NCBI GenBank assembly: GCA_028712175.1
Contig: JAQTQQ010000001.1
Coordinates: 96,992 to 160,991 of the forward strand
Direction of reading: 5' to 3'
DNA length: 64,000 nucleotides
Origin: Candidatus Omnitrophota bacterium
GTDB lineage: Bacteria > Omnitrophota > Gorgyraeia > Gygaellales > Profunditerraquicolaceae
In this document: piece by piece, positions 8,359-52,197 of the stretch
How positions within the stretch are numbered: the stretch's first letter is position 1
Layout: each line of letters opens with the position of its first letter
Notes under the pieces: model-generated
What the model was told of the DNA's origin: nothing
The model's input: only the letters and a program-made list of their open reading frames with translations
Database searches by the model: none
Program-made: the position numbers and the translations under genes

Positions 8359-8360
8359 TT

Positions 8361-9158: not shown

Positions 9159-9161
9159 ATC

Positions 9162-12636: not shown

Positions 12637-12669
12637 AATAATATTATATTACATAAAATTAAAATTACT

Positions 12670-13431: not shown

Positions 13432-13454
13432 TAGAGGTAGAGGGAAATTTTAAG

Positions 13455-16025: not shown

Positions 16026-16059
16026 TTGATATTAGAGACCCGTACTGTATAATAACTCT

Positions 16060-18763: not shown

Positions 18764-18832
18764 AGGATTTCTTTAGCCGCATAAGTATGATAAAATTATC
18801 CAAGATTTATTCTTAATGAGCCCATTGAAATA

Positions 18833-19984
18833 ATGCCCAGAATTAACATCCTTTACCTCATTACTAAATTGGAATTAGGGGGTGCCCAAAAGCAATTATT
18901 AAGCTTAATTGCCAATTTAGATAGAGACAGGTTCAATATTTTTTTATTTACCGCCAAAGACGGATTATTGATTGAAGAGGCTTTAAGAATAAAGGGACCA
19001 GTTTTAAAAAGATCAAAATTTCTCTGCGGACCGGTTAATTTTCTGAAAGACATTCTCGTTTTCTTTGAAATTTACGGTTTCATTAAAAAAAACAGAATCC
19101 TCATAGTCCATACTCACAGTTCTAAAGCAGGAATTGTTGGTCGTTTTGCCGCTAAAGCAGCTAATGCGGCGGTCATTATTCATACTGTTCATGGCTGGAG
19201 CTTTCATGATTATCAGCCAAGGATGGTTAAAAATTTTTATATATTCTTAGAAAAGATTTGTGCTAAGTTTAGCAATAAAATAATTGTTGTCTCAAAGCAC
19301 GATAAGGAGAAGGGGTTAAAGAACCTGGTTGGATCAGAAGGCCAGTACATTATAATCAGGTATGGAATAAATATTAAAGAATTCAAGCCCGATATTGGGC
19401 GCATTTCAGCCAGACGGGCTTTAGGGCTGAATGAAACCGACCTTGTGGCGGGAACGGTTGCTTGTTTTAAGCCTCAAAAATCACCTTTAGACTTTATTAA
19501 TATAGCGGCTGGTATTAAAAAAGATTTACCGAATATTAAATTTATCATGGTAGGGGATGGGCTGTTGCATAAGGATGCGTTGCTCCTTTTAAAAAAGCTT
19601 AATTTGGAAAGGGAGTTTATTTTAACCGGCTGGCGCCATGATGTAGCCTCGATTTTGTCAGCTTTAGATGTTTTTGTTTTGACTTCATTGTGGGAAGGTT
19701 TACCGATAGCAGTTTTGGAGGCTATGGCCGCAAGGATCCCGGTGGTTGCCACTGATACTGGAGGGATAAGAGAGGTTATCGAAAACGGCAGAACGGGTTA
19801 TTTGGTTGCACCGGCCGATAAGCCCGCCTTGCAAAACCGGATAAAAGAATTGCTTAGCAATAAAGCCAGACGGGATGAATTTATAAAGCTGGCGGAAAAA
19901 AGGGTCAATGCCGAAGAATTTTTGATAAGTAAGATGGCCAAAGATACTCAAGAATTATACCTTAATTTAAGTGGAGGGGCTTAA
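18833..19984 (+). CDS. GT4 family glycosyltransferase
   Basis: GT-B retaining-transferase C-terminal motif 'EGLPIAVLEAMAARIPVVATDTGG'. Confidence 0.75.
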   Translation: MPRINILYLITKLELGGAQKQLLSLIANLDRDRFNIFLFTAKDGLLIEEALRIKGPVLKRSKFLCGPVNFLKDILVFFEIYGFIKKNRILIVHTHSSKAGIVGRFAAKAANAAVIIHTVHGWSFHDYQPRMVKNFYIFLEKICAKFSNKIIVVSKHDKEKGLKNLVGSEGQYIIIRYGINIKEFKPDIGRISARRALGLNETDLVAGTVACFKPQKSPLDFINIAAGIKKDLPNIKFIMVGDGLLHKDALLLLKKLNLEREFILTGWRHDVASILSALDVFVLTSLWEGLPIAVLEAMAARIPVVATDTGGIREVIENGRTGYLVAPADKPALQNRIKELLSNKARRDEFIKLAEKRVNAEEFLISKMAKDTQELYLNLSGGA

Positions 19985-19986
19985 AC

Positions 19987-20970
19987 ATGCTTAAATATGG
20001 AATTGTTTTTACCGCCGCTTTGATCTTTGGCATAGTTTTTACATTCTTATTGGCAAGGTATTCTTTAAAACATAAGATACTTAAAATCGAGTCTATTCCG
20101 TCGGTCGGAGGTTTGGGAATAGGTATGGCTTTTATTTTTTCTTTAGGTTTAGGCATATATGTATTCAATCTGGCTACAGCCAAGATGTTGGCGATAGCAG
20201 GCGCAGGCCTGCTTATGTTGGCCCTGGGGGTAATCGATGATTTAAAAGAATTATCGGTAGCGCAGAAATTCTTTGTGCAATCATGCTGCGCGGTTTTATT
20301 GATCATCTCCGGGGTAAGGACGGAAATTATGTATTTTGGTTTTTGGCCGAATGCCGTAATTACTTTCTTCTGGATATTGGGCATAACTAATGCATTTAAC
20401 CTGCTTGATATTATGGATGGTTTGGCCGCGGGGGTATCTCTTATTATAAGCAGCGCATTCCTATGGATAGGTTTATTTAACGCAGACCTGCAGGTGCAGG
20501 TTTTAAGCCTTATTCTCTGTGCTCTTAGCGCAGGTTTCCTCATTTTTAATATGCCACCGGCAAAGGTATATTTAGGTAATTCAGGCAGCCATTTTCTTGG
20601 CTTACTCATTGCTTCGCTTGCTTTGATTACGCATTATGCATCCAGTAGTAATGTATTTGCCCTGTTTAGCCCAATAATGATTGTCGGCCTGCCGGTAATG
20701 GATACAATATTGCTTATAATCTTCAGGATGATTAAAAATAAGCCCCCCTTTAATAAGAGCAGGGATCATCTTGCTTTAAAAATCGGAGCCTTGGGTTTTT
20801 CGCCGGTTAAGACAATTTTGATTATGTATTTATTAGGGGCTATTTTTGCTTCATGTGGGATTATTTTGACCCGGGTAAATAATATCTTTGGTGCAGTTAT
20901 CACCACCTCAATTTTTTTATTAAGCATAGGCATATTCTTTAGACTTGTAAAGATAGAGACAAATGGCTAA
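19987..20970 (+). CDS. polyprenyl-phosphate sugar-1-phosphate transferase (MraY/WecA family)
   Basis: 'NAFNLLDIMDGLAAG' DDxxD-type motif in an 11-TM protein. Confidence 0.8.
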   Translation: MLKYGIVFTAALIFGIVFTFLLARYSLKHKILKIESIPSVGGLGIGMAFIFSLGLGIYVFNLATAKMLAIAGAGLLMLALGVIDDLKELSVAQKFFVQSCCAVLLIISGVRTEIMYFGFWPNAVITFFWILGITNAFNLLDIMDGLAAGVSLIISSAFLWIGLFNADLQVQVLSLILCALSAGFLIFNMPPAKVYLGNSGSHFLGLLIASLALITHYASSSNVFALFSPIMIVGLPVMDTILLIIFRMIKNKPPFNKSRDHLALKIGALGFSPVKTILIMYLLGAIFASCGIILTRVNNIFGAVITTSIFLLSIGIFFRLVKIETNG

Positions 20971-22255
20971 GAAAATTATTATTTTAGGGGCCGGGCTCGC
21001 CGGCTTAAGCGCCGCCTGGCACCTTAAAAAGAAAGGGATACAAGCGACTGTCTTTGAGAAAGAAGCCATTGTCGGGGGGTTGTGCCGGACTAAGAAGGTC
21101 AATGGCTTTGTTTTTGATTATGACGGCCACCTTTTGCATTTTCAAAACAATTATGCATTGAAGTTGTCAAAGAGATTATTGAAAGGTAATTTGATCCGGC
21201 ATGAAAGAAAAGCATGGGTCAGCAATTTCGGTATTTTTAGCCGCTATCCGTTTCAGGCTAATCTTAACGCTTTACCTAAGCCGGTGGCCGAAGAGTGCTT
21301 GTGGGGTTTTGTGCGGGTATGTAATGCTAAACCCGCTATGCCCGGAGAGAATTTTCTAAAGTGGATAAATGCCACGTTCGGCCTGGGCATAGCCAAACAT
21401 TTTATGGTCCCTTATAATGAAAAATTCTGGGCAGTCCCTTTAAACCAGATGGTTTGTTCTCTGTGGGTCGAGAAATTTATTCCCCGGGTATATCTCTCTG
21501 ATATAGTTAATGGATTCCTTGAGGGCAGCTGCGATCATTTTGGTTATAATGCCTTTTTTTGGTATCCTAAAAAGGGCGGGATAATGCAGCTGCCATTGGC
21601 TTTTGAAGAAAGCATAGGAAAAATCTTTAAAAACAGCCGTATCAACCGCATAGACCTTGAAAAGAAAGAGATAACCATAAACGGGAAAGATAAAGAAAAA
21701 TACGATTCCTTAATTTTAACAATACCTTTGCCTGAATTGATTAAAATAGCCCGGCCTTTACCGCATAAAATACTGGCCTGCCTTAATAAGCTGCAATGGA
21801 ATTCTATTTATAACTTGAACCTTGGCGTAGAAGGAACCTGTCAGCCTGACAAGCACTGGGTATATTTCCCGCACAAGGAAACTGTTTTCTTTAGGGCAGG
21901 ATTCTTTCATAATTTTTCCCATGACCTTGCGCCAAAAGGGAAGAGCTCTTTATATGCGGAAGTTTCGTATTCAAGAAATAAGCCGATTAATAGAAAGAAT
22001 ATCGTAAAACATGTTTTAAGGGATTTGTATAAACTCGGAGTCATCACAAAGAAAAATAAAATATTAGTGACAGATGAAAATGACATAAAATACGGTTATC
22101 CGGTTTATAATCGTAATTATATAAGGGCAACCAGCGTAATTAAGGATTTTTTGTATTCTAACGGCGTGATTACCTGCGGCCGTTATGGTTCATGGAAATA
22201 TATGTCGATGGAAGACTCTATTCTTGATGGCAAAGAAGCAGCGGAGGTTTTTTAA
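20963..22255 (+). CDS. FAD-dependent oxidoreductase (amine-oxidase / UDP-galactopyranose-mutase-like fold)
   Basis: N-terminal dinucleotide-binding 'IIILGAGLAGLSAAWHL' plus 'GGLCRT'. 430 aa. Confidence 0.5.
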   Translation: MAKKIIILGAGLAGLSAAWHLKKKGIQATVFEKEAIVGGLCRTKKVNGFVFDYDGHLLHFQNNYALKLSKRLLKGNLIRHERKAWVSNFGIFSRYPFQANLNALPKPVAEECLWGFVRVCNAKPAMPGENFLKWINATFGLGIAKHFMVPYNEKFWAVPLNQMVCSLWVEKFIPRVYLSDIVNGFLEGSCDHFGYNAFFWYPKKGGIMQLPLAFEESIGKIFKNSRINRIDLEKKEITINGKDKEKYDSLILTIPLPELIKIARPLPHKILACLNKLQWNSIYNLNLGVEGTCQPDKHWVYFPHKETVFFRAGFFHNFSHDLAPKGKSSLYAEVSYSRNKPINRKNIVKHVLRDLYKLGVITKKNKILVTDENDIKYGYPVYNRNYIRATSVIKDFLYSNGVITCGRYGSWKYMSMEDSILDGKEAAEVF

Positions 22256-22259
22256 GGAG

Positions 22260-23036
22260 ATGCTTAAAAGAATAAAGAATATCTATTATTTTCGCCACAT
22301 CCTTTTTGATATGGCTATCAATCAATTAAAAGCTAAGTATGCCGGTTCGCGTTTTGGCATCTGGTGGGCGGTAATCGTCCCGTTGTTGCTTGCTTTAAGC
22401 ATAAATTTTGTCTTTCAGGTAATTTCTAAAATAGCAATACCGAATTACGCTTTTTTTGTATTATCCGGAATTATGCCGTGGCTTTTCTTTACCGGTGCCC
22501 TGACCGAGGTGAACAATTCATTTATAGCCAGCGCTTCCATATTAAAACAGAGTAGGTGCCCGCATGAATTTATACCACTTTCCCTTATTTTGGCCAACCT
22601 GCTTAATTTCTTAATCGGATTTATTTTTATCTTACCGCTGTTTATGGTGATTAAGCCGGCGATTTTGCTCGTGGTTGCTTATTTGTTTCTAATTATACTG
22701 CTTGAGACTTTTTTTATAATCGGATTAGGGTTAATTTTTGCGACCCTTAATGTATTTTTCAGGGATCTCTCTCATTTTCTATCTATCGGTTTTACCGTCT
22801 GGTTCTGGATTACTCCAATCTTTTATTCTTTGGATATGATCGATTTATCTTACCGTTGGGTTTGCTTTTTAAACCCGATGTCATACTTTGTTTCTTCCTA
22901 TCAAAGTATTTTATTCGAGGCAAAAGCCCCACTGCCTGCGGCTTTATGGGCTATGTTTGTTATTGCGGCCGTTTCTTGCCTGGCCGGGTATTTAATTTTT
23001 ATTAAAAATGAGCCGGAACTACTGAAAAGAATATGA
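22260..23036 (+). CDS. ABC-2 type polysaccharide export permease (Wzm/TagG-like)
   Basis: The ORF-track start (22185) overlaps the upstream gene, so I placed the start at the internal Met 22260 (the alternative is 22227). The protein has 6 TM segments, N-terminal 'RHILFDMAINQLKAKYAGSRFGIWWA', and is coupled to the Wzt-like ATPase. Confidence 0.65.
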   Translation: MLKRIKNIYYFRHILFDMAINQLKAKYAGSRFGIWWAVIVPLLLALSINFVFQVISKIAIPNYAFFVLSGIMPWLFFTGALTEVNNSFIASASILKQSRCPHEFIPLSLILANLLNFLIGFIFILPLFMVIKPAILLVVAYLFLIILLETFFIIGLGLIFATLNVFFRDLSHFLSIGFTVWFWITPIFYSLDMIDLSYRWVCFLNPMSYFVSSYQSILFEAKAPLPAALWAMFVIAAVSCLAGYLIFIKNEPELLKRI

Positions 23037-25765
23037 TCGCAATAAAATTCGACAATGTCTGGGAGAAATACCGGATTAAATTCATAAACGCAGGCAAGGT
23101 ATCATGGGAAGAGTTTTGGGCTTTAGAAGATATAAGTTTTCAGGTTGAAAGCGGGCAAGTGCTCGGGATAGTCGGCCAAAACGGGGCAGGTAAAAGCACT
23201 GTCCTAAAATTAATTGCCGGCATGCTTATCCCCGATAAGGGAAAGGTTTCTTTGACCGGCAAGGTTTCTACCCTTATGGAGCTGGGAGCAGGTTTTAATC
23301 CGGAATTGACCGGAAGAGAAAACGTTATTGTTAATTCAAAGATTTACGGATTGGATGAGAAATTACTGGATAGCCGGCTGCCCGAAATTGTAGAATTTGC
23401 CGGGTTAGGCAGGTTTATCGACGCTCCTATAAAATATTATTCGCAAGGGATGTATATGAGGCTGGCATTTGCTTTAGCCATATATGTCGAGCCGGACATC
23501 CTTCTTATTGACGATATCCTCGCCGTTGGGGATGAAGAGGCAAGGTTGCGTTGCTTAAAAAAGATATTCACCCTGAAAGAGAAAGGTAAAACCATAATTT
23601 TGGTGAGCCATGATATGGATATGATAAGAAAAATTTGCGACAGGGTCATTTTCTTAAAAAATGGAAAAGTTATCAATATAGGGGAGCCGGATAATATAAT
23701 TCCTTGTTATCTGGATAGTTTAGGAGATGCTAAAGGAATAGCATCCTTGAATAAAGGCCCGTTGCGCATGGCGTTTAATAATGGCAAGCTATCTTTTAGT
23801 TACGGCAATATTATGCTTACAAGGGGTATAAGTATTTATATGGCTGCCCTGTTAGCAGATTCTGGGCTTTGGCTCCCTTCGTTTAATCTTGAATGGGTTG
23901 TAAGAAATATGTCCGAAGATGCCCTGATTGTAGAGGGGAGAAATAAAGAAATTAATATTTCTCAATTATGGAGTTTTGATATTGGCGAAGATAATCTCCG
24001 TTGTCAGGTTAAGGTGGGCGGAAATGTTAAATCATTGCGTACAGACTTATTTTTAATCCAGGATTACATCGGCTGGTCGGATCTGTCCCGGCAGGAAAAT
24101 TTTGGCTCCTTTAATCATAAGTCAAGCTGGCAGGAGGTGCATACTAATAATGCAGAGCTTGGCCTTATAGGGCTGAGGCCTGCCGAGGATAAAACTAGTC
24201 TGCCGTTTTTATTATTTGAATTTGGAGAAAACGGCCGTTTTTTTAAGCTTTTTAATACCGGTTATGAGCAGGAGGCACGGGTTATCCAAGTCCCCTTGGC
24301 AGCGGATACTTATTCCATGACGATTAATTTTTTTCCGCAAGAAGATGGATTTAGGGCATCTCTTAATCGGATTAAAGCCCAGCTGGCTTTGACTCATCAG
24401 GCAGAAGCAGAGCGCCTTCAATTAGGGCAGACAATATCTTCGGGGCGTTTACGCATTTTTTGTGATCTTGGGGGGAAAACCATCAGGATTTATTTTAAAG
24501 ACAAAGAGATAACTTACGGTAACGGTCTACATGCGGTGTTTGATACCGCAGAAGGGCAATTTATTTTTAAAAATAGCCAATGGCAGGTAGATAAAATATC
24601 CGATAATGAAATGATCCTAAATTTAAATTGTCACATTTTATCGCTCTCTCAGGTTTGGTTGTTGCGGTGCAATAACGAGAATTCATTAAATATACAGGTA
24701 AAGGTAAGAAGCGATAAAGAAATTTTTTTGAGAGAACAGTTTTTGAAATTGGAGCTGGAGGATAAATATGAAAGCTGGCGGACTCCTTATGAAGAGGGGG
24801 TATTTTTAATTGAAAGGTATATTGATGGTATTGCGCCGATAAGGTTGAAAGATAGCAAAACTTGTCAGGTTATTTTGAGCCCTTCGGGAAACATTTTACC
24901 CAAATTATCCTTTAAATCATCCGGGCATAAAGATGACGGCATTTTGAGCCTTTATAAAAGTAAATCCGTCAAAGATATCTCGGTTAACCTTAATTTTTCC
25001 AGAATTATTCCTAACGGCCAAATTTCTTTGCCTGCCGGTGATTATCTTTATTTTGAAGGCGAAATTTTATTGAATAAGGATATTGTTGAGGCAGAAAAGA
25101 ATATTTTGTCAGAGCAGGTTAAAGTAAAAAGTAAAGAGCTGAAGCTGGTTTTCGACCGGGGCAGGGGCAGGATTTTTTGGGCCCAAAAAGAGCTGACCAG
25201 GGGCTTAAGCCTTTATACAAGCCTGCGCCATTCGGGGATTTGGTATGATTCTTATCAGGCCTTATGGAGTATAAATAAATCGGAAGATAGGTATTTTGAG
25301 GTTTACGGAGCCTGGCCATATATTCCGGTTTCGCAGCTTTGGCAGGTTTATATAGAAGATAATGTATTGCATTGGAAAGTGCAGTTAGATGTCCACCAGC
25401 CGGTTAATCTGGAAATAATGCAGGCAAATTTGATGCTTTCCTGCGAATACAAAAACTGGCAGGTAGCTGCCGGGCAATCCCCGAATATTTTTCCGGAAGA
25501 GTATACTCAAGATTATGATATTTTGCCTTTTCGTCTCTGGTATGGCAAGCCGGCAGAAGCCGGGCTTATCTTGATTGGTAACGGCGTGCCGCAGGTTAAA
25601 TTTTTATCGCAGACATCCGATGAGGCAATTAGGGGAATTATCGAGAACACTGACTACCTCTATCATGCCCGGCTCATGCAATATCAAAAAACCGGCACCA
25701 GTAAATTACCCGCAGGGTCGTATCCTTACTTTGACGGCATAATAAAAATCGGCAATGATAAATAA
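23033..25765 (+). CDS. Wzt/TagH-like ABC transporter ATP-binding protein with ~680-aa C-terminal extension of three repeated ~100-aa domains
   Basis: Walker A 'GQNGAGKST', signature 'YSQGMYMRLAF', Walker B 'ILLIDD' and H-loop 'VSHD'. The C-terminal extension holds three copies of a motif (.. LT.G.GL .. W..S .. Q.W ..) that also occurs at the N-terminus of the next protein. Confidence 0.75.
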   Translation: MIAIKFDNVWEKYRIKFINAGKVSWEEFWALEDISFQVESGQVLGIVGQNGAGKSTVLKLIAGMLIPDKGKVSLTGKVSTLMELGAGFNPELTGRENVIVNSKIYGLDEKLLDSRLPEIVEFAGLGRFIDAPIKYYSQGMYMRLAFALAIYVEPDILLIDDILAVGDEEARLRCLKKIFTLKEKGKTIILVSHDMDMIRKICDRVIFLKNGKVINIGEPDNIIPCYLDSLGDAKGIASLNKGPLRMAFNNGKLSFSYGNIMLTRGISIYMAALLADSGLWLPSFNLEWVVRNMSEDALIVEGRNKEINISQLWSFDIGEDNLRCQVKVGGNVKSLRTDLFLIQDYIGWSDLSRQENFGSFNHKSSWQEVHTNNAELGLIGLRPAEDKTSLPFLLFEFGENGRFFKLFNTGYEQEARVIQVPLAADTYSMTINFFPQEDGFRASLNRIKAQLALTHQAEAERLQLGQTISSGRLRIFCDLGGKTIRIYFKDKEITYGNGLHAVFDTAEGQFIFKNSQWQVDKISDNEMILNLNCHILSLSQVWLLRCNNENSLNIQVKVRSDKEIFLREQFLKLELEDKYESWRTPYEEGVFLIERYIDGIAPIRLKDSKTCQVILSPSGNILPKLSFKSSGHKDDGILSLYKSKSVKDISVNLNFSRIIPNGQISLPAGDYLYFEGEILLNKDIVEAEKNILSEQVKVKSKELKLVFDRGRGRIFWAQKELTRGLSLYTSLRHSGIWYDSYQALWSINKSEDRYFEVYGAWPYIPVSQLWQVYIEDNVLHWKVQLDVHQPVNLEIMQANLMLSCEYKNWQVAAGQSPNIFPEEYTQDYDILPFRLWYGKPAEAGLILIGNGVPQVKFLSQTSDEAIRGIIENTDYLYHARLMQYQKTGTSKLPAGSYPYFDGIIKIGNDK

Positions 25766-28700
25766 TTATTATAAATTTAAAGAACACCTGAGACGTAAAG
25801 GGCTGCTTTATGCCTTTTTAAGAGGGCTGAAATATTTTATTTTTCTCTTAAGGAGCTCTTGTAGAAAAAACAAAGTAAATTTTAATTTTATCGCCAAAGG
25901 CAAAACCAGTATTATCTGTACGGCGTCAGGTCTTAAGATTTTCTGGGGAAATAAGGAATTAACTTCCGGTATTGGGCTGCATTCGCTAGTAAATACTCTG
26001 GGCCTGTGGACGGATTCCGTTACAGCCAGCTGGCAGATTATCGAAAGAGGGCCCGATTATTTTATTCTCAAGGTTGTTTTTAAGGCTCTGCCCTTAAACC
26101 AGATCTGGAAGATTAAAATTGAAAAGCAGGAAAGGATATCGCTGGATATAGCTCTTGAGGTTGAAGAGGAATTAAATATTGATGAACTGCGCGTTATGGG
26201 TTTGGTTAGTAATAAATATAAAAGCTGGTTCTGTGATTATAAGCAGGGGGATTTTAGCCGCCTGGATGATAAATTTTCTGATGTATATTTTGGGAATTCT
26301 CCGGCCAGGCTAATCGGGGTAAGGTTTCCTTTAGGAGAACCGGGCTTTTTAAATGCTTTTAGTTTTGACTGTGACGATAAGGATTGGTTTGCCGTAATCC
26401 AAAATCCACCCTCATTTACTGACGCCCGCCTAGTCGGCGTAAGGAGAGTATATCCCGGAGAAAATATCCTGCGCCCGGGTATCTGCTATCAGATAATATC
26501 ATCCGGCCTTGATTTGTCCAAAGATGGCCAAGACTTGGATATTAAGGTAGAAAGCATAAGGCGAACTTCTTTGGCGCCTATCCTCGGCACGGAGCTTGAC
26601 AATCAAAAAAGAAAAACCAGGATTTTGCTCGTCAATTTACCCTGGCAGAAGAATGGTGTTTCAGGCGTGCGCGCAGGATCGCGCTGGCCGCACATAAAAG
26701 GCCGGCCCGAAGATAGCTATTTGCCATTTCCCTTCTTTTTAGCCTACGCTACCGCTTTATTACGTAGCCGGGATATTGAAGCAGTGATGATTGATGCTAT
26801 AGCAGAAGGCCTAAGTGAAGAAAAATTCCTGGAAATAGTTTTATCAACTAAGTTTGATTATCTGGTAACTGAAACATCGGTTCCGTCTTTTAATGATGAT
26901 CTGTGCCTCCTAGAGAAAATAGCTAAAGCAGGGGCTAATATAATTTTATGCGGTCCGAATTACGAAATATATAAACCGGAGTTTTTAAAAAACCATACTT
27001 TTATCCAATTTGTTTTATACGGTGAGTATGAATTTACGCTATTAGAGCTGGTTGAGTCATTAAGGGATAAAAAAACCCTTTCTTCGGTGGCCGGGTTGAT
27101 TTACAGAGACAATGGCTCGGTTCAGGTTAACTCAAAAAGAGAACCGTTTCCGTTGGATCTTTTGCCTTGGCCTTATAGGGAAGGCCTGCCTATGGATAAA
27201 TATCTGGATGCCCCCGGTCGAATGCCTTTGCCTAGCGTTCAGATGATCGCTTCCCGGGGATGCCCTTTTAGGTGTAAATTTTGCCTCTGGCCGCAGGTTG
27301 TCTATCAAGGGCATGATTACCGCGTAAGGAGCGTACAAGACGTTGTTAGCGAAATGCAATATTTGGTTGAGGAAAAAGGTTTTAGATCCGTCTATTTTGA
27401 TGATGATACCTTTAATATAGGTAAACAACGGATGCTGGATTTTTGCCGTCAGATTAAAGAGCGTAAATTAAATAAAGTGAAATGGGCAATAATGGCCCGG
27501 CCCGACCTTATGGATGAAGAAATACTGCAGAATATGAAGGATGCCGGTTTGTGGGCTGTTAAATATGGCGTCGAGTCAGCCGTGCAAAGTTTATTGGATA
27601 ATATAGATAAAGATATGGATTTAGAAAAAGCAAAAAGAATGATTGAGTTTTCTAAAAAAATCGGTCTTAAGGTCCATCTTACTTTTACTTTCGGCCTTCC
27701 GCAGGAAACAATGGAAACCATTCAGGAAACAATAGATTATGTTAAAAAGGCTGATCCATATTCGGCCCAGTTTTCTATCACAACACCGTTTCCCGGGACA
27801 GAATACTATAAATCCTTAGACGGCCGGGGGATGATCCTTTCTAAAGATTTCTCCGATTACGACGGCCAATTTAAAAGCGTAATTAAATTAGAGAATTTAA
27901 GCGCTGCGGAGTTAGAAAAGGGCAAAGATAAGGCAACGCAGGCCTGGCAGGATCATTTAAGGAGAAAGGACTTATGGCGCAATAACCTGATAAAGCTTTA
28001 TTCTTTGGCAAAAGAAAAAGGCTTATCTTATGCGCTAGGTAAAGGTTTGAGGTATTTTAGAAACTTTCTGTTTCCTTATCCTGCTACTGACAAAGATTGC
28101 CTGCATCCGATGAGCTATGATGATCTGATCAAGAAAGTAAACTTTGGTTTTACGGATATACTTCTTATACAGTGTCCGCCATGGGATATCTCAATGCCGC
28201 CTTTAGGGGTTGCCTACCTGTCCAGTTATTTAAAAGAACACGGATACAATGCTTCTGTATTTGACCTGAACATAGCTTTGTATAATTTAGCAGGCGATAA
28301 CGCAAAGCGGCTCTGGGAGCAAAAGAATTATGACAAGTGGATGAATACCGATTCTCTGGAAAACGCAAATAACCGGCTAAAAGACGAGGCGGGTATCCTG
28401 CTTACCAAATTATTAGCCAAAGCGGATATCGAATATATCGGCCTTTCCGTAAATCTAGCCGGAATCAGTATGGCCGCGGGGCTTATTAAGATAATAAAAT
28501 TGCAGAAACCCAGCTCTAAGATAATTCTGGGTGGATGGGGGTGTATTAATGAACACATGCGCGGCCTTTTCCCCGCCGGATTAGTCGATGTTTTTGTCGT
28601 GGGTGAAGGCGAAGCTACGCTGTTAGAGGTAATTGAAGTATTTAGGGGCCTCAAAAAAGAGAGCGATGTCCGCGGAGCAATATTTAATCACAGAATTTTA

Positions 28701-29540
28701 GCTGATTATTCTCCCCGGGAGCCAATCATGGATTTAAATGTTATCCCCTGGCCGACTTTTAAGGAATTTAATCTGCACTGTTACGGATCCAGGAGCCTGC
28801 CGATTTTTACAAGCAGGGGATGTATTGGCAGGTGTAGTTTTTGCAACGACTGGCCGAATTCTACGCCTTACCGAAGCCGCAGTGCGCGTTCTATAATGGA
28901 TGAAATTATTTATCATATAAAGAATAACCATACAAAAACATTTAGTTTTAAAGATTTGTTATGTAACGGCGATATTGGTAACCTTAATAAATTAGCCGAT
29001 TTAATTATCGCCTCGGGGATAAAAATTAACTGGGATTCTCAGGCAATCCCCCGCAAAGAAATGACCTATGAGCTACTCTTAAAATTAAAGCAATCAGGCT
29101 GCAGCACTTTGATATATGGCATAGAAAGTTTTTCCGATAATGTCCTAAAACTTATGCGCAAGATATTTACTTCTTCTGTTGCCGAAGACGTGCTTAAGGA
29201 TACCTGGAGGGCGGGGATCAAAAGCTGTATTAATATCATTGTGGGTTTTCCGGGCGAGACAGATGAAGATTTTCAAAGCACATTAAAGGCGATAAAAGAA
29301 AACAGGCAGTATATCGGACAAATTGGGGCAATTAGCGTATGCCTGGTTAACCACAACAGTGATTTAGAGAATAATCATCAGCGTTACAACCTGATCCTGC
29401 CAGGCGATACCAGGATCAGGGCGAAGGAGTGGAGGAGCAGCGACAATTTGAGCACCTATCAGTTAAGGCGGCAAAGGGCTGAACGGATTTTGTCCATGGC
29501 CAATGAAATCGGACTGAAATATGAAACTTTAACCATATAA
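25755..29540 (+). CDS. tandem double B12-binding radical SAM protein (1261 aa) with N-terminal Wzt-C-like domain
   Basis: There are two units. Unit 1 has B12-domain 'RILLVNLPWQ...' and radical-SAM Cys triad 'RGCPFRCKFC'. Unit 2 has 'ILLIQCPPWD...' and 'RGCIGRCSFC'. Both units begin with the related leader 'HLRRK.L......L....KGL.YA...GL.YF'. Confidence 0.75.
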   Translation: MINNYYKFKEHLRRKGLLYAFLRGLKYFIFLLRSSCRKNKVNFNFIAKGKTSIICTASGLKIFWGNKELTSGIGLHSLVNTLGLWTDSVTASWQIIERGPDYFILKVVFKALPLNQIWKIKIEKQERISLDIALEVEEELNIDELRVMGLVSNKYKSWFCDYKQGDFSRLDDKFSDVYFGNSPARLIGVRFPLGEPGFLNAFSFDCDDKDWFAVIQNPPSFTDARLVGVRRVYPGENILRPGICYQIISSGLDLSKDGQDLDIKVESIRRTSLAPILGTELDNQKRKTRILLVNLPWQKNGVSGVRAGSRWPHIKGRPEDSYLPFPFFLAYATALLRSRDIEAVMIDAIAEGLSEEKFLEIVLSTKFDYLVTETSVPSFNDDLCLLEKIAKAGANIILCGPNYEIYKPEFLKNHTFIQFVLYGEYEFTLLELVESLRDKKTLSSVAGLIYRDNGSVQVNSKREPFPLDLLPWPYREGLPMDKYLDAPGRMPLPSVQMIASRGCPFRCKFCLWPQVVYQGHDYRVRSVQDVVSEMQYLVEEKGFRSVYFDDDTFNIGKQRMLDFCRQIKERKLNKVKWAIMARPDLMDEEILQNMKDAGLWAVKYGVESAVQSLLDNIDKDMDLEKAKRMIEFSKKIGLKVHLTFTFGLPQETMETIQETIDYVKKADPYSAQFSITTPFPGTEYYKSLDGRGMILSKDFSDYDGQFKSVIKLENLSAAELEKGKDKATQAWQDHLRRKDLWRNNLIKLYSLAKEKGLSYALGKGLRYFRNFLFPYPATDKDCLHPMSYDDLIKKVNFGFTDILLIQCPPWDISMPPLGVAYLSSYLKEHGYNASVFDLNIALYNLAGDNAKRLWEQKNYDKWMNTDSLENANNRLKDEAGILLTKLLAKADIEYIGLSVNLAGISMAAGLIKIIKLQKPSSKIILGGWGCINEHMRGLFPAGLVDVFVVGEGEATLLEVIEVFRGLKKESDVRGAIFNHRILADYSPREPIMDLNVIPWPTFKEFNLHCYGSRSLPIFTSRGCIGRCSFCNDWPNSTPYRSRSARSIMDEIIYHIKNNHTKTFSFKDLLCNGDIGNLNKLADLIIASGIKINWDSQAIPRKEMTYELLLKLKQSGCSTLIYGIESFSDNVLKLMRKIFTSSVAEDVLKDTWRAGIKSCINIIVGFPGETDEDFQSTLKAIKENRQYIGQIGAISVCLVNHNSDLENNHQRYNLILPGDTRIRAKEWRSSDNLSTYQLRRQRAERILSMANEIGLKYETLTI

Positions 29541-29550
29541 ATTCATTACA

Positions 29551-30747
29551 ATGCCTAATATCGGTCCAGACGATTATTTGTTAAAGGATATTAAAAACGG
29601 TTTCCGTGCCTCTATGGGGCCGCAGATTGTTCAATTTGATATTACCAACAAGTGTAATAATAATTGTTTATGCTGCTGGAATAGGTCTCCTTTATTAGGG
29701 GAGCTTTCTATGGAGAGAAAAAAAGAAAATAACGAGGAGCTTAAATTTGAAGTCATAAGAAAGACATTGGAAGAATTGCGTCAGATGGGGACGAAAACTA
29801 TTTTTCTGGCAGGCGGAGGAGAGCCTTTTGCGCATCCGGACATTTTGAAAGTATTAAGGTGTATTAAAGAAAACAACATGCGCACTTTTATTAATACCAA
29901 CTTTACTCTCATAAACAAGGAAATAGCAAACCAGATAACCAAACTAAAGATCGACCATATTCACGTAAGCCTTCTGGCCGGTACAGCCAAGACTTATGCG
30001 GGGATTCATCCCAACAAAACAGAAGAAACGTTCCATCAAATTGTAAATTTACTGAAGTATATTTCTTCGCTCAAAGAGCAATCCGGACAGCATCTTTATA
30101 ATCCCTTGCCTCATATTAATTTATATTATGTAATCTTCAGTAAAAATTATAAAGAGATAGATAAAATGATTGATGTGGCTATAGAAACTAAGGCCGATAG
30201 TGTTGAATTTACGCCTGTCGATGTCATCCCGGGTTACACCGATTCACTGTTATTGGGCAAAAAAGAGTCAGAGCATGCTTTAAACATGCTGGATAAGCAG
30301 TCTTTAAGAATAGAGCAGTATAATATTCACGAGCCGGTTAAGATCAGTATTACCCAAAAGGAAAGTTTTATAAAAAGGATCAGTTCGCAAGAAGCCTTGT
30401 TGGGGAAATACGAATCGGATAAAGTTATAAATCAGCCTTGTTATGTGGGGTGGGTATTTGCCAGGATTAAGGCGGATGGCAGCGTGAACCCCTGTTTAAA
30501 AGCCCACAGGATATCCATCGGGAATATCCACGAAAAATCTTTTAAGGAAATCTGGAATAGCACTGAGGAACAACTATTTAGGGAAAAGGCGTTTACACAC
30601 AACCCAAATGACCCATATTTCAATTTAATCGGTAACGACGCTAATATAAATTTTGGATGTATTAAAAGCTGCGATAATATTCAGATTAATCAGGAGATGC
30701 ACGCTAAATACGCCGGATTATTGCAAAAAGATGACAATTCCGCTTAA
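29551..30747 (+). CDS. radical SAM/SPASM(twitch)-domain protein, paralog 1
   Basis: 'NKCNNNCLCCW' CxxxCxxC, 'GGGEPF', and C-terminal aux-cluster cysteines 'PCYVGWVFARIKADGSVNPC' and 'GCIKSCDN'. Confidence 0.75.
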   Translation: MPNIGPDDYLLKDIKNGFRASMGPQIVQFDITNKCNNNCLCCWNRSPLLGELSMERKKENNEELKFEVIRKTLEELRQMGTKTIFLAGGGEPFAHPDILKVLRCIKENNMRTFINTNFTLINKEIANQITKLKIDHIHVSLLAGTAKTYAGIHPNKTEETFHQIVNLLKYISSLKEQSGQHLYNPLPHINLYYVIFSKNYKEIDKMIDVAIETKADSVEFTPVDVIPGYTDSLLLGKKESEHALNMLDKQSLRIEQYNIHEPVKISITQKESFIKRISSQEALLGKYESDKVINQPCYVGWVFARIKADGSVNPCLKAHRISIGNIHEKSFKEIWNSTEEQLFREKAFTHNPNDPYFNLIGNDANINFGCIKSCDNIQINQEMHAKYAGLLQKDDNSA

Positions 30748-31933
30748 AAAAGATAAAACTGCGCTTAATAAATTGCTGATCGACGGAGTTTTGTCTTCCA
30801 AATCAGCCTTTATCGGCCCGGAAGTATTGCATATTGATTTAACTAATCAGTGCAATTTTAACTGTATTGCCTGCTGGTGCCGGTCTCCTCTGTTAACCGA
30901 CAAAGCCATGCCGGATTGGGAAAAAAAATTAACCTTACCTCTTGATATCATAAAAGGGGTTATTGACGATTTAGAACAAATAGGGGGGCTTAGGCAGGTT
31001 AAATTAGTGGGCGGAGGAGAGCCTTTTATGCATCCTAACGTATTAGAGATAGTCGAATATATAAAAAGCAAAGATAAAGAAATTGAAATAGATATAAATA
31101 CTAATTTTAGCCTTGTTGATAAAGAAACCGCAGAGAAATTATTGCATATAGGGGTGGATTCTTTGACTATAAGTATCTGGGCCGGGAGCGCTCCGGTTTA
31201 TGCATCGGTGCACCCCAATCAGAAAGAAGAAACTTTCTATAGGATTAAAGATATTATGCGGTTTATATATGAAAGAAAGAAAGCAAAAGGGCTGTCTGCC
31301 CCAAGAATTATAATTCATGATGTGATTTTCAATTTGAATTATAAAGATTTAGAAAATATGATTGAATTCGCTTTAGATGCAGGAGCTGATTCTGTCCAGG
31401 TTGTCCCTGTGGATCCTGTAAAAGACAGGACCGAGAGCCTATTGTTAAGCGGCACACAAAGAAAAGAGCTTCTTGAGATTATTAACAGGATTAACAGGTA
31501 TTATGACCCAAAGACATTCCGTTATATTACTCAGGATAAAAGGTCTGTAGTTTTATGCGATTTTAACAGTTTTATACGCCGCGTTGAGAGGCTCAATATT
31601 GCAAGCGGAGTGTATGATGAGCAGGTTGTTGAAGAAATTCCATGTTATGTAGGCTGGTTATTTGCGAGAATTATGGCTACGGGAAATGTTGTTCCTTGTT
31701 GTAAGGGCCATAGGATGACTATGGGCAATATCTATAAAAACAGATTTAAGGAGATTTGGCTTTCTCCCGTTTACGATGAATTCAGGAATAATGGTTTAAA
31801 GCTTTCTAAAAATCATCCTTATTTTTCCGTGATCGGCAATTCCGCTACGGCTAAGACAGGCTGCTATAATTGTGACAATCTTTGGCAGAATATGCCAATG
31901 CATAAACTGATGAATTTAAAGAAAATATCTTAA
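30731..31933 (+). CDS. radical SAM/SPASM-domain protein, paralog 2
   Basis: 'NQCNFNCIACW', 'GGGEPF', 'PCYVGWLFARIMATGNVVPCC', 'GCYNCDN'. The start is placed at the internal Met (30731) to minimise overlap. Confidence 0.7.
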   Translation: MTIPLKKDKTALNKLLIDGVLSSKSAFIGPEVLHIDLTNQCNFNCIACWCRSPLLTDKAMPDWEKKLTLPLDIIKGVIDDLEQIGGLRQVKLVGGGEPFMHPNVLEIVEYIKSKDKEIEIDINTNFSLVDKETAEKLLHIGVDSLTISIWAGSAPVYASVHPNQKEETFYRIKDIMRFIYERKKAKGLSAPRIIIHDVIFNLNYKDLENMIEFALDAGADSVQVVPVDPVKDRTESLLLSGTQRKELLEIINRINRYYDPKTFRYITQDKRSVVLCDFNSFIRRVERLNIASGVYDEQVVEEIPCYVGWLFARIMATGNVVPCCKGHRMTMGNIYKNRFKEIWLSPVYDEFRNNGLKLSKNHPYFSVIGNSATAKTGCYNCDNLWQNMPMHKLMNLKKIS

Positions 31934-31934
31934 T

Positions 31935-33086
31935 ATGATAAAAGGTTTGTTTTCTTTTAAAAAAGTTAAGGCTTGGGTTTTGAATTTAAAAGGCATATCC
32001 ACTAAGTGTTACGCTTATAAAGGCCCCGATTTGGTTCAGATCGATTGTACGGATAAGTGCAATAGCCGCTGCCTTGCCTGCTGGGTGCATTCTCCGTTAC
32101 TTAATAGTAAAGAAAATAAAGATTTTCTTGATATAGAGCCATCAATATTAAAACGTTTTATAAGGGAGGCTAAGAAATCCGGGACAAGGGAGGTTTGTTT
32201 CTCCGGAGGAGGGGAGCCGTTTTTATATGAACATATTTGGGAGATTTTAGAGTTTACGCAAAAAAACAGCATGCCTTTTCGTATAAATACAAACTTTACT
32301 TTATTAAGCAAAAGGGATATAAAAAGGCTGCTTTCTTATAATAAGCTGGCATCTTTGACGGTAAGCATTTGGGCTCCTGACGCCGGCTTGTATTCAGAAT
32401 TACACGGAAGAAATAAGGAATCTTTCGACAGCCTGATTTCTAACTTGCGGTTTCTTAATAAACTTAAAACCCCCAGATTAAATGTGATTGTTTATTCCGT
32501 GATGACCAGTATGAATTATTTTGCTTCAAAGGCTTTGACGAATTTAGCCAGGGAAACGGGTTGTAGCGGCATAGAGTTTGCGCTTATTGATGCTATACCC
32601 GCAAACACAGATTCACTGCTGCTTAATGAAAATCAGTTGAGTTACCTAAAAAGTGATTTTCTCGGATTAATCAGGCAGGCAGAAGATTTTGGCAAGGCAT
32701 TTAAAATAATTAACAAAGAATTATTTCTTAGAAGGTTGTCTTGCCCCGGGGCAAGCTGCGGAGAATATGATGCTTTTGTCGATAGGATACCCTGTTATTC
32801 AGGCTGGGTTTTTTTAAGGCTACGGGCAAACGGAGACCTGAACTCGTGCCTTAAATCTCATAAAATTCCCATCGGGAATATCTATAATGAAAGTTTTCTG
32901 TCTATCTGGAACAATGCATCGCAGCAGGAGTTTAGAAGGAAGTGTTTAGCCCTTCCGAAAGATAAAGAATATTTCAAAGTTTTTGGCAACGGAAATTCCG
33001 CAGGTATCGGTTGCAGGCGCTCATGTGATAATATATTTAGCAATGAGCATGCCGGAAGATTGGTCAAGTATTTAATTAAGTTATGA
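31935..33086 (+). CDS. radical SAM/SPASM-domain protein, paralog 3
   Basis: 'DKCNSRCLACW', 'GGGEPF', 'PCYSGWVFLRLRANGDLNSC', 'GCRRSCDN'. Confidence 0.75.
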   Translation: MIKGLFSFKKVKAWVLNLKGISTKCYAYKGPDLVQIDCTDKCNSRCLACWVHSPLLNSKENKDFLDIEPSILKRFIREAKKSGTREVCFSGGGEPFLYEHIWEILEFTQKNSMPFRINTNFTLLSKRDIKRLLSYNKLASLTVSIWAPDAGLYSELHGRNKESFDSLISNLRFLNKLKTPRLNVIVYSVMTSMNYFASKALTNLARETGCSGIEFALIDAIPANTDSLLLNENQLSYLKSDFLGLIRQAEDFGKAFKIINKELFLRRLSCPGASCGEYDAFVDRIPCYSGWVFLRLRANGDLNSCLKSHKIPIGNIYNESFLSIWNNASQQEFRRKCLALPKDKEYFKVFGNGNSAGIGCRRSCDNIFSNEHAGRLVKYLIKL

Positions 33087-33202
33087 AAAAAATAAGAAGA
33101 GCAGGCATCATATTATTACTTTTGTTGGTTGCGGCCGTCATGGATACTTTACTGTTTGTATTAAAGAAGGCAAAAGGCATCCGTTTTTTCCCGGGAGGAT
33201 AA
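33083..33202 (+). CDS. unannotated 39-aa hydrophobic peptide MKKIRRAGIILLLLLVAAVMDTLLFVLKKAKGIRFFPGG
   Basis: Its ATG overlaps the TGA of the third rSAM gene (ATGA overlap), and it ends at the RBS of the next GT gene. It is below the 60-aa ORF-track cutoff. Confidence 0.25.
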   Translation: MKKIRRAGIILLLLLVAAVMDTLLFVLKKAKGIRFFPGG

Positions 33203-33205
33203 AAT

Positions 33206-34705
33206 TTGAATATATTATTAATGCATCCTCATGATTTATATTCTTCCTCCGAGCCTTGGACGGTGCGCATAAAAAATATAGCTTGCCAGTTTGAAGCCAA
33301 AGGGCATTCGCTGAAGTTGGTTTATTTCCCTCTTGATAAACGGGATATCGGACACAGTTTTTTAAGCGATAATATTGAACTTATTGCTTTAGACAGAAGG
33401 TTAGGCATATTCAGGCTGTTTAGAAATATCCTGTCCGTGATGAGGCTATCCGCTTCATGCGATATAATACATTTTCAGAAATGTTATTATTATGTAGCGC
33501 TTCCGGCGCTGATTGCCGCATGGATTAAAAACAAACCGGTGCATTACGATTGGGACGATTGGGAGACAAAGATATTTTATTATTCAAATCCTTCCCAATT
33601 TCTTGTTGGCGGGTTTATCAATTTGTTCGAGAAATTAGTCCCCATGGCGGTAGATACAGTATCTGTTTCTAGCGGTTATCTTCGCCAAATCTGCCTTTTA
33701 AGGGGCGTGCTTAATAAAAATATCTTTTCTGCGCCGGTAGGCGCAAACTTGGAAGAGTTTTTTCCGGATCCGGATTCTAAGGGCAAGGTAAAGGGAAAAT
33801 ATGGAATAAATGGCCAGCTTGTTTTGTACGTAGGCCAGCTTCATGGCGGTCAATATGCCGAACTTTTTATAGCCGCAGCAGCAGATATTCTTAAAGAAAA
33901 TAAGCGGGATATATATTTTATGATTGTTGGCGACGGCTACCGGTTGAATGAATTAAAGCGCATAGCTTCGGATATGGGGCTGGGACCTCGTTTTATTTTT
34001 TCCGGGTTCATCCCTCATGAAAAGGTGCCTTCTTATATTAACGATGCCGATATCTGTGTGGCTTGTTTTGAAGACAATGCTATAACCAGGTGTAAAAGCC
34101 CTTTAAAAATCGCTGAATATTTAGCCTGTGCTAAAGCTATAGTTGCCAGCAATGTGGGAGAGGTCCGGAATATGGCAGGCGGGGTGGGAGTATTAACTGA
34201 ACCCGGTAATGTTTCTTCATTATCCGAGGGGATAAAGAGCTTATTGGATAACAAGGCGTTAAGGGATAGATTAGGCCATTATGCCCGCTTGAGGGCTGAA
34301 AGAAAATATAATTGGTTGGTTACGGCAGATAATATCCTGAGCGCATATACAGAAGCAATTAGGGTAAACGGAGATTGCAGCGGTTCTATCCAGCTTAATG
34401 GGAGGGGGAATATGGCGTATCCAGAGAAAACAGAGCATGGTTTTGATATTCTTACGGCAAGGGTTTTTTCGATAACCAGCCATGCGCCTGCCCCTTATAC
34501 TATTGAGGTTGAGCTTAGAAAACTTATCGGAGAGCGGCCAGACTCTTTAACGGTAGACCCGCGCTGCACTTTTTATAAGGACGATAAAGTCCCTAAAACA
34601 ATTAATATCGTTCAGCCCAAGGATATAATTGAAGTGACATATTTAGTTCATAATGGCATTAAAGTAGCTTTTAACATTATCGTCAGGCCGCCAAAGCCTT
34701 TCTGA
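33206..34705 (+). CDS. GT4 family glycosyltransferase with ~120-aa C-terminal extension
   Basis: TTG start with GGAGGA RBS 8 nt upstream (alternatively the ATG 27 nt later). GT-B motif 'SPLKIAEYLACAKAIVASNVGE'. Confidence 0.7.
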   Translation: MNILLMHPHDLYSSSEPWTVRIKNIACQFEAKGHSLKLVYFPLDKRDIGHSFLSDNIELIALDRRLGIFRLFRNILSVMRLSASCDIIHFQKCYYYVALPALIAAWIKNKPVHYDWDDWETKIFYYSNPSQFLVGGFINLFEKLVPMAVDTVSVSSGYLRQICLLRGVLNKNIFSAPVGANLEEFFPDPDSKGKVKGKYGINGQLVLYVGQLHGGQYAELFIAAAADILKENKRDIYFMIVGDGYRLNELKRIASDMGLGPRFIFSGFIPHEKVPSYINDADICVACFEDNAITRCKSPLKIAEYLACAKAIVASNVGEVRNMAGGVGVLTEPGNVSSLSEGIKSLLDNKALRDRLGHYARLRAERKYNWLVTADNILSAYTEAIRVNGDCSGSIQLNGRGNMAYPEKTEHGFDILTARVFSITSHAPAPYTIEVELRKLIGERPDSLTVDPRCTFYKDDKVPKTINIVQPKDIIEVTYLVHNGIKVAFNIIVRPPKPF

Positions 34706-34748
34706 CCCCGTCAGCTTTAAGTAAAAAGCGTTTCAAATTTGATTTAAG

Positions 34749-38688: not shown

Positions 38689-38696
38689 AGTTTTAT

Positions 38697-52155: not shown

Positions 52156-52168
52156 CGAGTAATTAACC

Positions 52169-52197
52169 TTGATTGTTTTATTTTCAAATGGTATATT
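52169..52197 (+). promoter_or_regulatory. sigma70-like promoter (TTGATT-17-TATATT) upstream of the Flp pilin array
   Basis: -35 at 52169-74, a 17-nt spacer, and -10 at 52192-97, with a ~120-nt leader to the first pilin ATG. Confidence 0.45.

Follow-up and report, generated by a model that had tools for sequence, protein, structure and literature searches.

A head-to-tail fusion of two B12-type radical-SAM units in a Wzm/Wzt-associated gene cassette of Omnitrophota

Analysis of a 64,000-nucleotide stretch of DNA from a Candidatus Omnitrophota bacterium (GenBank assembly GCA_028712175.1, contig JAQTQQ010000001.1, forward-strand positions 96,992 to 160,991; referred to here as the window) revealed that one of its open reading frames (ORFs), encoding a protein of 1261 amino acids (aa), is a head-to-tail fusion of two complete radical S-adenosylmethionine (SAM) units of the B12 type. 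We consider this architecture, and its origin through gene fusion, to be nearly certain. In the manner of a “Rosetta stone”, the gene joins two neighbours from a conserved Omnitrophota cassette; the cassette also encodes an ABC-2 permease (Wzm), its ATPase (Wzt) and three radical-SAM/SPASM proteins. The protein is present in public databases and is uncharacterised; an identical entry (P0001) from a Candidatus Omnitrophica metagenome-assembled genome (MAG) is on record on 3 contigs and is annotated only as “radical SAM protein”. The fused double architecture is a variant on class B (cobalamin-dependent) radical-SAM enzymes and on fusions of the FbiC type. More interesting than the fusion are the phylum-wide, Wzt-coupled cassette of five radical-SAM domains and a new family of galactose-mutarotase-like modules that the fusion protein shares with Wzt.

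Each unit comprises a Rossmann-type domain and a radical-SAM barrel, with unit 1 (U1) extending over residues ~289-716 and unit 2 (U2) over residues ~800-1195. The original prediction of such a fusion was built on four strings of residues, all of which were located in the protein: KEHLRRKGLLYAFLRGLKYFIFLL (residues 9-32) and QDHLRRKD...RYFRNFLF (residues 732-773), which had been taken for leaders of the two units, and the radical-SAM cores SRGCPFRCKFCLWP (residues 500-513) and SRGCIGRCSFCNDWP (residues 1020-1034). Pfam Radical_SAM (PF04055) matched two stretches, residues 498-662 and ~1018-1179, and when the units were scanned alone U1 scored 78.4 bits and U2 68.3 bits (cut-off 29.5), so that the second domain, first read from its cysteine triad, was also found by profile search. 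The hallmark of the radical SAM superfamily, a CX3CX2C motif at the start of a partial TIM barrel, is present twice, and its cysteines were conserved in all relatives compared (C503/507/510 in 118 of 118, C1023/1027/1030 in 33 of 33). A BLAST comparison of the whole protein with itself gave nothing beyond the identity match; the similarity of U1 and U2 (29% identity over 296 aa, E 4e-24) was seen once the units were compared by BLASTP as separate sequences.

The predicted fold agrees with these assignments. An AlphaFold2 model of residues 286-1261, with a mean predicted local distance difference test score (pLDDT) of 88.9, twice shows a Rossmann-type beta-alpha domain ahead of a barrel, and connects the units by two long helices (residues 717-772) and a low-confidence linker (residues 772-784, pLDDT < 50). 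The best Foldseek matches were AprD4 (template modelling (TM) score 0.81, for U1 over the whole AprD4 chain), TsrM, OxsB, CysS, MgmA and TokK, all of which have the B12-type radical-SAM architecture. The two PF04055 matches, the homology of the units, the invariant triads and the fold together bear out the predicted head-to-tail fusion. As judged from sequence, U1 and U2 are diverged old paralogs and different enzymes. A recent internal tandem duplication was considered and ruled out by their low identity and by each unit having its own orthologs across the phylum.

U2 has the hallmark of class B enzymes, a Rossmann-type B12-binding domain ahead of the barrel. PF02310 matched residues 888-959 at 38.1 bits in the scan of the whole protein (cut-off 32.1) but at only 28.7 bits with U2 alone, and alignments to CysS and TIGR03975 reach into the same domain. 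Two B12-binding matches had been expected; in this protein the one on U2 was returned (U1 is considered below), whereas relatives show PF02310 matches on both units, orthologous U1 units among them. In addition, the full-length HpnJ and BchE models align to U1 from model positions 18 and 22 (residues 307 and 326).

That two genes were joined is apparent from the relatives of the protein. For this comparison the protein was divided into segments N (residues 1-300), U1 (301-745) and U2 (746-1261), with S denoting a radical-SAM/SPASM module like those of the three downstream genes. Among the 120 best homologs, N-U1 was the commonest architecture (77 proteins, ~740-810 aa), followed by N-U1-U2 (14; 1142-1286 aa), N-U1-S (9; 1145-1234 aa), U1-U2 (7; 932-1004 aa) and N-U1-S-U2 (7; ~1700 aa), while N-U1-U2-S, U1-S-U2 and U1-U2-S were each seen once or twice (1416-1713 aa). 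Of 86 loci with U1, 16 had U1 and U2 in one ORF and 29 in separate ORFs, and in 41, often on short contigs, U2 was not seen. Relatives do encode the halves as separate genes, in 29 of the 45 informative loci (i.e., those where both units were visible). The suggestion that tandem fusion is uncommon did not hold within this family, in which the units were fused in the other 16 of those 45 loci and came in at least eight domain orders. When U1 sequences were placed in a neighbour-joining tree (calculated without support values), fused and unfused forms were interleaved, which indicates that fusion has been frequent and labile in the family; the N-U1-S-U2 proteins formed one clade.

The junction can be placed by comparison with a locus (L001) whose gene order is Wzm, Wzt, N-U1 (798 aa), a 2-nt gap, a gene of 468 aa and three radical-SAM/SPASM genes. 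The 468-aa protein is 60.6% identical to residues 800-1261 of the fusion protein, and the stand-alone N-U1 ends with a segment that aligns to residues 731-775; the junction therefore lies at residues ~776-799. A scan of GTDB species representatives returned 405 relatives, mostly from Omnitrophota, with others from Woesearchaeota, MAGs labelled Methanosarcinales, Aminicenantes and Margulisiibacteriota.

A similar event gave rise to the FO synthase FbiC, a fusion of CofG and CofH, which other lineages encode as two genes and which act in a single reaction sequence with two separate 5'-deoxyadenosyl radicals (PMC11917521). The fusion ORF resembles FbiC in having two radical-SAM domains in one polypeptide and follows the same evolutionary logic. 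However, CofG and CofH are not of the B12 type and belong to an unrelated pathway, and the FbiC fusion is fixed in whole lineages, whereas the present family shows frequent fusion and fission and a changing order of domains. The many permutations are natural Rosetta stones: they indicate which enzymes act together, and they supply single-polypeptide constructs for biochemistry. The pattern of separate and fused genes supports a functional link between U1 and U2, such as a shared pathway. The earlier proposal of two B12/SAM-dependent reactions on one substrate is not supported as regards cobalamin; the closest solved relative of U1 is AprD4, an enzyme whose B12-like domain carries no cobalamin.

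Two further variations were observed among the relatives. An N-U1 homolog of 1236 aa (P0062) has an intein inside its U1 radical-SAM core (Pfam PF14528 LAGLIDADG and PF14890 intein splicing), which splits the U1 match at approximately U1 residues 242-287 of 445. Another locus (L003) encodes a 1299-aa triple radical-SAM/SPASM protein (12388-16287) and an 843-aa fusion of SPASM and B12-type radical-SAM modules (19730-22261).

Each unit had been predicted to carry its own leader, a reading that needs correction. The similarity of the two segments is real, as the Smith-Waterman score of 58 between residues 3-28 and 743-768 was reached by 0 of 5000 shuffles and residues 743-768 are the best off-diagonal match of residues 1-40 in the protein. 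Both are predicted helical hairpins, with hydrophobic moments of 0.59 (residues 20-37) and 0.63 (residues 755-772, the maximum of the protein), and no transmembrane segment was predicted anywhere in the protein. Four lines of evidence, however, identify the second copy as the C-terminal tail of U1. When the C-terminal ends of 75 stand-alone N-U1 proteins were scored with a profile of the N-terminal helices, 55 reached at least 5 bits, vs. 0 of 75 shuffled tails; proteins of the N-U1-S-U2 type have the motif between U1 and S; stand-alone U2 orthologs begin directly at the DILLIQSPPWD strand, the first of the Rossmann domain; and the first copy co-occurs with the N domain, with none in U1-U2 proteins. 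A role as leader of U2 was thus ruled out, since the motif ends stand-alone N-U1 proteins. We infer that the amphipathic motifs anchor the protein in the plane of the membrane, with helix-helix docking as an alternative. The features of the fusion ORF and its neighbours are given in Table 1.

Table 1. Positions in the window of the domains of the fusion ORF and of the neighbouring genes.
Feature	Position	Strand	Details
O-antigen-ligase-like (Wzy_C) protein, GT4 glycosyltransferase and WecA/MraY-family polyprenyl-phosphate sugar-phosphate transferase	17627..20970	+	
FAD amine-oxidase-family protein	20963..22255	+	
Wzm (ABC-2 permease)	22185..23036	+	
Wzt-type ABC ATPase	23033..25765	+	910 aa; N-like repeats 23738-24382, 24404-25105, 25106-25759
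Fusion ORF, whole	25755..29540	+	1261 aa, ATG start; helices, N-like beta-sandwich, U1, U1 tail, linker, U2
Helical hairpin (“leader 1”)	25755..25868	+	residues 1-38, strongly amphipathic
N-like domain	25887..26513	+	residues 45-253, galactose-mutarotase-like beta-sandwich
Long helix connecting N-like domain to U1	26526..26621	+	residues 258-289
U1 Rossmann-type (B12-binding-like) domain	26619..27134	+	residues ~289-460
U1 radical-SAM barrel	27234..27902	+	residues ~494-716, CX3CX2C at C503/C507/C510
U1 two-helix C-terminal tail (“leader 2”)	27903..28070	+	residues 717-772
Fusion linker	28071..28151	+	residues 773-799; stop and start here in separate-gene relatives
U2 Rossmann-type B12-binding domain with helical insertion	28152..28685	+	residues ~800-977
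U2 radical-SAM barrel	28797..29339	+	residues ~1015-1195, CX3CX2C at C1023/C1027/C1030
Three paralogous radical-SAM/SPASM genes	29551..33086	+	29551-30747, 30653-31933, 31935-33086
Four glycosyltransferases	33206..37622	+	two GT1/GT4-type, two GT2

The relatives of U1 suggest a sugar-directed enzyme. Its best curated family was HpnJ (TIGR03471; 329.7 bits over residues 307-729, i.e., across both the B12-like and the radical-SAM domain), followed by BchE and PhpK, and its best solved relative was AprD4 in complex with paromamine (PDB 6fd2, E 4e-26). Its Rossmann domain has a family signature, LPWQ..GVRAGSRWPH...E..YLPFPFF, that is invariant in relatives. AprD4, a radical-SAM 1,2-diol dehydratase of apramycin biosynthesis, resembles U1 in its Rossmann-like domain, its barrel and its sugar substrate, paromamine. 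The two share only ~21% identity, and AprD4 is a stand-alone enzyme that acts on a small molecule and is without an N-like domain, amphipathic tails or a second unit. HpnJ is associated with hopanoids and is a non-methylase that has been proposed to contract a glucosamine ring (PMC9204698); in contrast, U1 is found in the context of Wzm/Wzt and glycosyltransferases and not of hopanoid genes.

U2, by sequence, is nearest to the cobalamin-dependent C-methylases. The best solved relative was CysS (9n1b, E 5.6e-11) and the best curated family TIGR03975, a C-methyltransferase family of ribosomally synthesised and post-translationally modified peptides (RiPPs), with 109.5 bits for U2 alone and 166 bits for the whole protein. 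CysS, TokK and the TIGR03975 enzymes are built like U2, with a CX3CX2C barrel behind a B12-binding Rossmann domain. U2 differs from them in the helical insertion in its Rossmann domain and in being fused behind another radical-SAM enzyme, and it presumably acts on a glycan, where they act on peptides or carrier-bound small molecules. Neither unit can be assigned to a named family, as no curated cut-off was reached: the equivalog cut-off of HpnJ is 577.6 bits, that of TIGR03975 281.85 bits, and the AprD4 model (NF033070) gave 113.3 bits against a cut-off of 500.

The fusion gene lies within a cluster whose content is that of an ABC-transporter-dependent, polyprenol-linked glycan pathway. The gene order begins with a tetratricopeptide repeat (TPR) protein, a Wzy_C/ligase-like protein, a GT4 glycosyltransferase, the WecA/MraY-family transferase and the flavin adenine dinucleotide (FAD) amine-oxidase-family protein, and continues with Wzm, Wzt, the fusion, three radical-SAM/SPASM genes, two GT1-type (GT1/GT4) and two GT2 glycosyltransferases. 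The components expected of a Wzm/Wzt pathway are present (PF01061, PF00005 with TagH/Wzt-type NCBIfam matches, PF00953, Wzy_C and six glycosyltransferases), with the WecA-like transferase scoring 93 bits against WecA, which is under the cut-off. The start of the fusion ORF overlaps the Wzt stop by 11 nt, and Wzt was directly upstream in 30 of the 48 loci with a visible neighbouring ORF. The FAD amine-oxidase-family gene, whose best NCBIfam models are PRK07208-type “hypothetical protein” families, immediately precedes Wzm here and in roughly two dozen related loci (e.g., L003, L008 and L009). The three radical-SAM/SPASM genes are variously fused in relatives, together or to U1/U2. The second of them was listed from a TTG codon that overlaps the upstream gene by 95 nt, and its true start is probably a downstream codon. 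Overall, the cassette (Wzm, Wzt, N-U1/U2 and three radical-SAM/SPASM genes, flanked by glycosyltransferases and, in relatives, also by PMT_2 enzymes) is conserved across Omnitrophota and some archaea.

The N-like domain links the fusion protein to Wzt. The adjacent Wzt has three homologous copies in tandem, which take up its C-terminal two-thirds (BLASTP E 7e-15 to 6e-9; hidden Markov model (HMM) domain E 1e-40 to 1e-52). It had been predicted to be a Wzt-C-like domain, and it is so in its homology to the neighbouring Wzt; it is not, however, Pfam Wzt_C, and its fold differs from that of the jelly-roll carbohydrate-binding domain (CBD) of classical Wzt (PMC9445017). There was no Pfam match to Wzt_C (PF14524) at E <= 0.01 for the N domain or the Wzt C-terminus. 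Searches of Pfam, NCBIfam and PDB sequences with the N-like domain gave no match, and its profile gave nothing against PDB sequences even at E <= 10. Fold comparison of the predicted structure, by superposition on aldose 1-epimerases and on sugar-binding domains from glycoside hydrolases, identified it as a ~210-residue galactose-mutarotase-like domain (supersandwich). Its near-invariant positions include the aromatic residues W93, W118, Y155, W158 and F167.

The family of the N-like domain is small (630 clusters at 50% identity among 1.84 billion representatives) and its partners are restricted. By local classification, plus a Pfam scan of 8 otherwise unexplained architectures, the best 148 carriers were sorted into 75 Wzt ATPases with 2-7 copies, proteins in which the domain is joined to radical-SAM modules (U1, U2 or S), PMT_2 (GT-C) glycosyltransferases, of which there were seven, and a single fusion of GT4, N-like and radical-SAM/SPASM modules; across the family, Wzt proteins had 1-8 tandem copies. 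In 50 loci with both Wzt and U1, the domain was found on Wzt in 47 and on the radical-SAM ORF in 38. The 3 loci without it were all archaeal, and in the one archaeal locus that was inspected a Wzt with a genuine Pfam Wzt_C adjoined the same U1-U2 and three SPASM genes. We regard the N-like domain as a new, narrowly distributed candidate carbohydrate-binding module that would widen the substrate-recognition repertoire of Wzt. The seven PMT_2 proteins (P0134, P0192, P0231, P0237, P0250, P0261 and P0263) have 2-4 C-terminal copies, which probably face the periplasm, in which case the module is not limited to cytoplasmic partners. The longest arrays, of ~7-8 tandem domains, were seen in P0184 (2244 aa, a Wzt) and P0267 (1881 aa, with no ABC domain detected).

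The observed anatomy, homology and synteny suggest a model in which the protein takes part in tailoring of a glycan; the substrate, chemistry, use of cofactors and terminal or internal placement of the modification in this model are proposals. The amphipathic helices would keep the enzyme at the membrane's cytoplasmic side, where the N-like domain would bind the polyprenol-linked product of the WecA-like transferase and the glycosyltransferases, a glycan on which the enzymes and Wzt would thus converge. If U1 is analogous to AprD4 and HpnJ in its action, it may carry out a non-methylating, 5'-deoxyadenosyl-radical rearrangement or dehydration of a sugar residue. U2 may then add a methyl group by radical chemistry, probably dependent on methylcobalamin, and the three SPASM enzymes could perform further oxidative or C-C/C-X steps. 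The Wzt copies of the N-like domain would recognise the tailored glycan and permit its export, in the way that capped O antigens are handled by the Wzt CBD. The fusion itself would merely fix the 1:1 stoichiometry and the proximity of two consecutive catalysts, for which FbiC is a parallel. We estimate the probability of this reading as a whole, a blend of architecture, fusion origin, glycan tailoring and export step, at roughly 0.6. Tailoring of a glycan is, by itself, slightly favoured over other functions, while the step in which the cap is read and export gated is tentative, with the odds against it.

The comparison with cap-dependent Wzm/Wzt systems is instructive here. In such systems chain growth is ended by a terminal modification, the cap, which is read by the Wzt CBD before export (PMC9445017). 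The Escherichia coli O9a system (WbdD plus Wzt-CBD) and Aquifex aeolicus WzmWzt are like the cassette in having an ABC-2 permease and an ATPase with an extra C-terminal domain, and in cap-dependent systems tailoring enzymes are likewise encoded alongside a polyprenol-linked glycan pathway. The classical CBD, in contrast, is a single jelly-roll (Pfam Wzt_C), whereas here there are 1-8 galactose-mutarotase-like copies, with the module also on a tailoring enzyme, and known caps are made by methyltransferases, kinases and 3-deoxy-D-manno-octulosonic acid (Kdo) transferases and not by radical-SAM enzymes. To our knowledge, no radical-SAM enzymes are known in O-antigen or other Wzm/Wzt-type polysaccharide pathways, and our literature search returned no description of the cassette or of such enzymes in Wzm/Wzt pathways; Xanthomonas papers that surfaced in it concern unrelated genes. 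The cassette might be an unrecognised radical-SAM capping system, in which five radical-SAM domains create an unusual residue, such as a sugar that is deoxygenated, ring-contracted and C-methylated, at the end of a lipid-linked polysaccharide and the shared mutarotase-like module reads this cap and gates export, a possibility that we hold to be slightly more doubtful still than cap-reading and gating in general. If true, the system would be a functional replacement of the WbdD plus Wzt-CBD logic, widespread in Omnitrophota and present also in archaeal MAGs labelled Woesearchaeota, Nitrososphaeria and Methanosarcinales. From a five-domain radical-SAM cassette wired to an exporter one would predict that the surface glycans of Omnitrophota, which are mostly uncultured and possibly host-dependent nanobacteria, carry a modification of a new class.

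Several observations weigh against glycan tailoring with coupled export. The scores of both units against curated families are all far below the cut-offs, so that the reaction types are extrapolated from distant relatives. There was no direct Pfam match to PF02310 on U1 of the 1261-aa protein, AprD4 has a B12-like domain without cobalamin, and neither a cobalamin riboswitch nor B12 genes were seen within the window; we know of no universal sequence motif for cobalamin binding in B12-type radical-SAM enzymes. The predicted TM score (pTM) of the AlphaFold2 model was 0.54, i.e., the relative orientation of U1 and U2 was not confidently predicted, and substrate channelling between them is therefore without support. 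The fold of the N-like domain is also known from non-sugar contexts, including the YidC periplasmic domain, a viral capsid protein and an NDH subunit, and the domain could be a protein-docking module instead of a glycan binder. Finally, the modification may be terminal (a cap) or spread along the chain.

The docking possibility amounts to a variant of the model above, in which the N-like domain and the amphipathic helices attach the radical-SAM enzymes to the Wzt repeats, giving an enzyme complex bound to the transporter, without any reading of glycan. In its favour, the domain was found on radical-SAM enzymes solely when it was also on Wzt (38 loci with both vs. 0 with the radical-SAM copy alone), tandem arrays on Wzt would suit a scaffold, and the overlap of the Wzt and fusion genes is in keeping with it. 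Classical Wzt CBDs, moreover, dimerise via strand exchange (PMC9445017). Set against this is the presence of the domain on PMT_2 (GT-C) proteins and on a GT4 fusion, for which a glycan ligand is the simpler common factor. The near-invariant positions are also mostly aromatic, and aromatic residues are typical of sugar-stacking sites. We consider docking in place of glycan binding to be unlikely.

Less likely again is that the cassette tailors a lipid, for example the polyprenyl carrier or a membrane-spanning, hopanoid- or ladderane-like lipid, that the ABC-2 transporter flips. The matches of U1 and U2 include HpnJ, the ladderane-type B12 radical-SAM family TIGR04072 and HpnR; the second SPASM gene weakly matches the tetraether synthase Tes (E 4.7e-10); and the conserved upstream flavoprotein is of the amine-oxidase/CrtI/HpnE superfamily. 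Omnitrophota also carry homologs of lipid radical-SAM enzymes such as Mss and Hbs (10.1101/2023.10.20.563219). All of the lipid-family matches, however, are far below cut-offs, and the proposed target of HpnJ is itself a sugar head group. The N-like domain has the fold of carbohydrate enzymes and its other partners are glycosyltransferases and Wzt, the cassette is always found among glycosyltransferases, and the archaeal Wzt has the glycan-cap-binding Wzt_C.

Maturation of a RiPP, in which B12-type methylases and SPASM enzymes would modify a ribosomal peptide exported by the ABC-2 transporter, is very improbable. The best curated family of U2 is a RiPP family and U1 matches ApyD, SPASM enzymes are typical peptide maturases, and the combination of B12-type radical-SAM enzymes, SPASM enzymes and an ABC transporter resembles proteusin-type clusters. 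The TIGR03975 scores are, however, far short of the cut-off for that family, and the genes from 22185 to 37622 are so closely packed (overlaps, or gaps of up to ~120 nt) that there is no room for a precursor gene. In addition, no conserved small ORF was seen in the gene calls of six homologous loci, a RiPP recognition element (RRE) or PqqD-type domain is absent, and the partners of the N-like domain are all glycan machinery. Lastly, a mis-assembly or sequencing error that deleted a stop between two genes, as might be suspected from most relatives having two genes here, is of negligible probability and was ruled out by many independent fused orthologs, given that the identical protein is on contigs from several sources, that N-U1-U2 also occurs in fourteen clusters (47-69% identity, different samples) and in five species-representative genomes, and that the linker is a continuous, in-frame segment of 27 residues that aligns among fused forms.

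Other features of the window were noted during these analyses. A trehalose cluster is located at 6124-11048 and encodes an OtsA-like GT20 protein with an N-terminal extension of ~270 aa, a trehalose phosphatase, a DUF5752 protein and a TreT-type synthase. An operon on the reverse strand (37753-41396) encodes a response regulator-GGDEF protein, a histidine kinase and a FIST protein. Further downstream, a Tad/Flp-pilus-like cluster (45822-47414 and 47416-49575) includes a secretin with a C-terminal TonB_C domain and a T2SSE ATPase fused to an N-terminal ParA/MinD-like AAA_31 domain, which looks to be of the TadZ-TadA type. Between the pilus genes there are five consecutive forward-strand ORFs at 50017-57846 (712, 206, 209, 522 and 276 aa) with no Pfam match at E <= 1e-4. 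A cyclic di-GMP riboswitch aptamer (c-di-GMP-I-GGC) was found at 60939-61030 on the forward strand, with 61.3 bits vs. a gathering score of 59.

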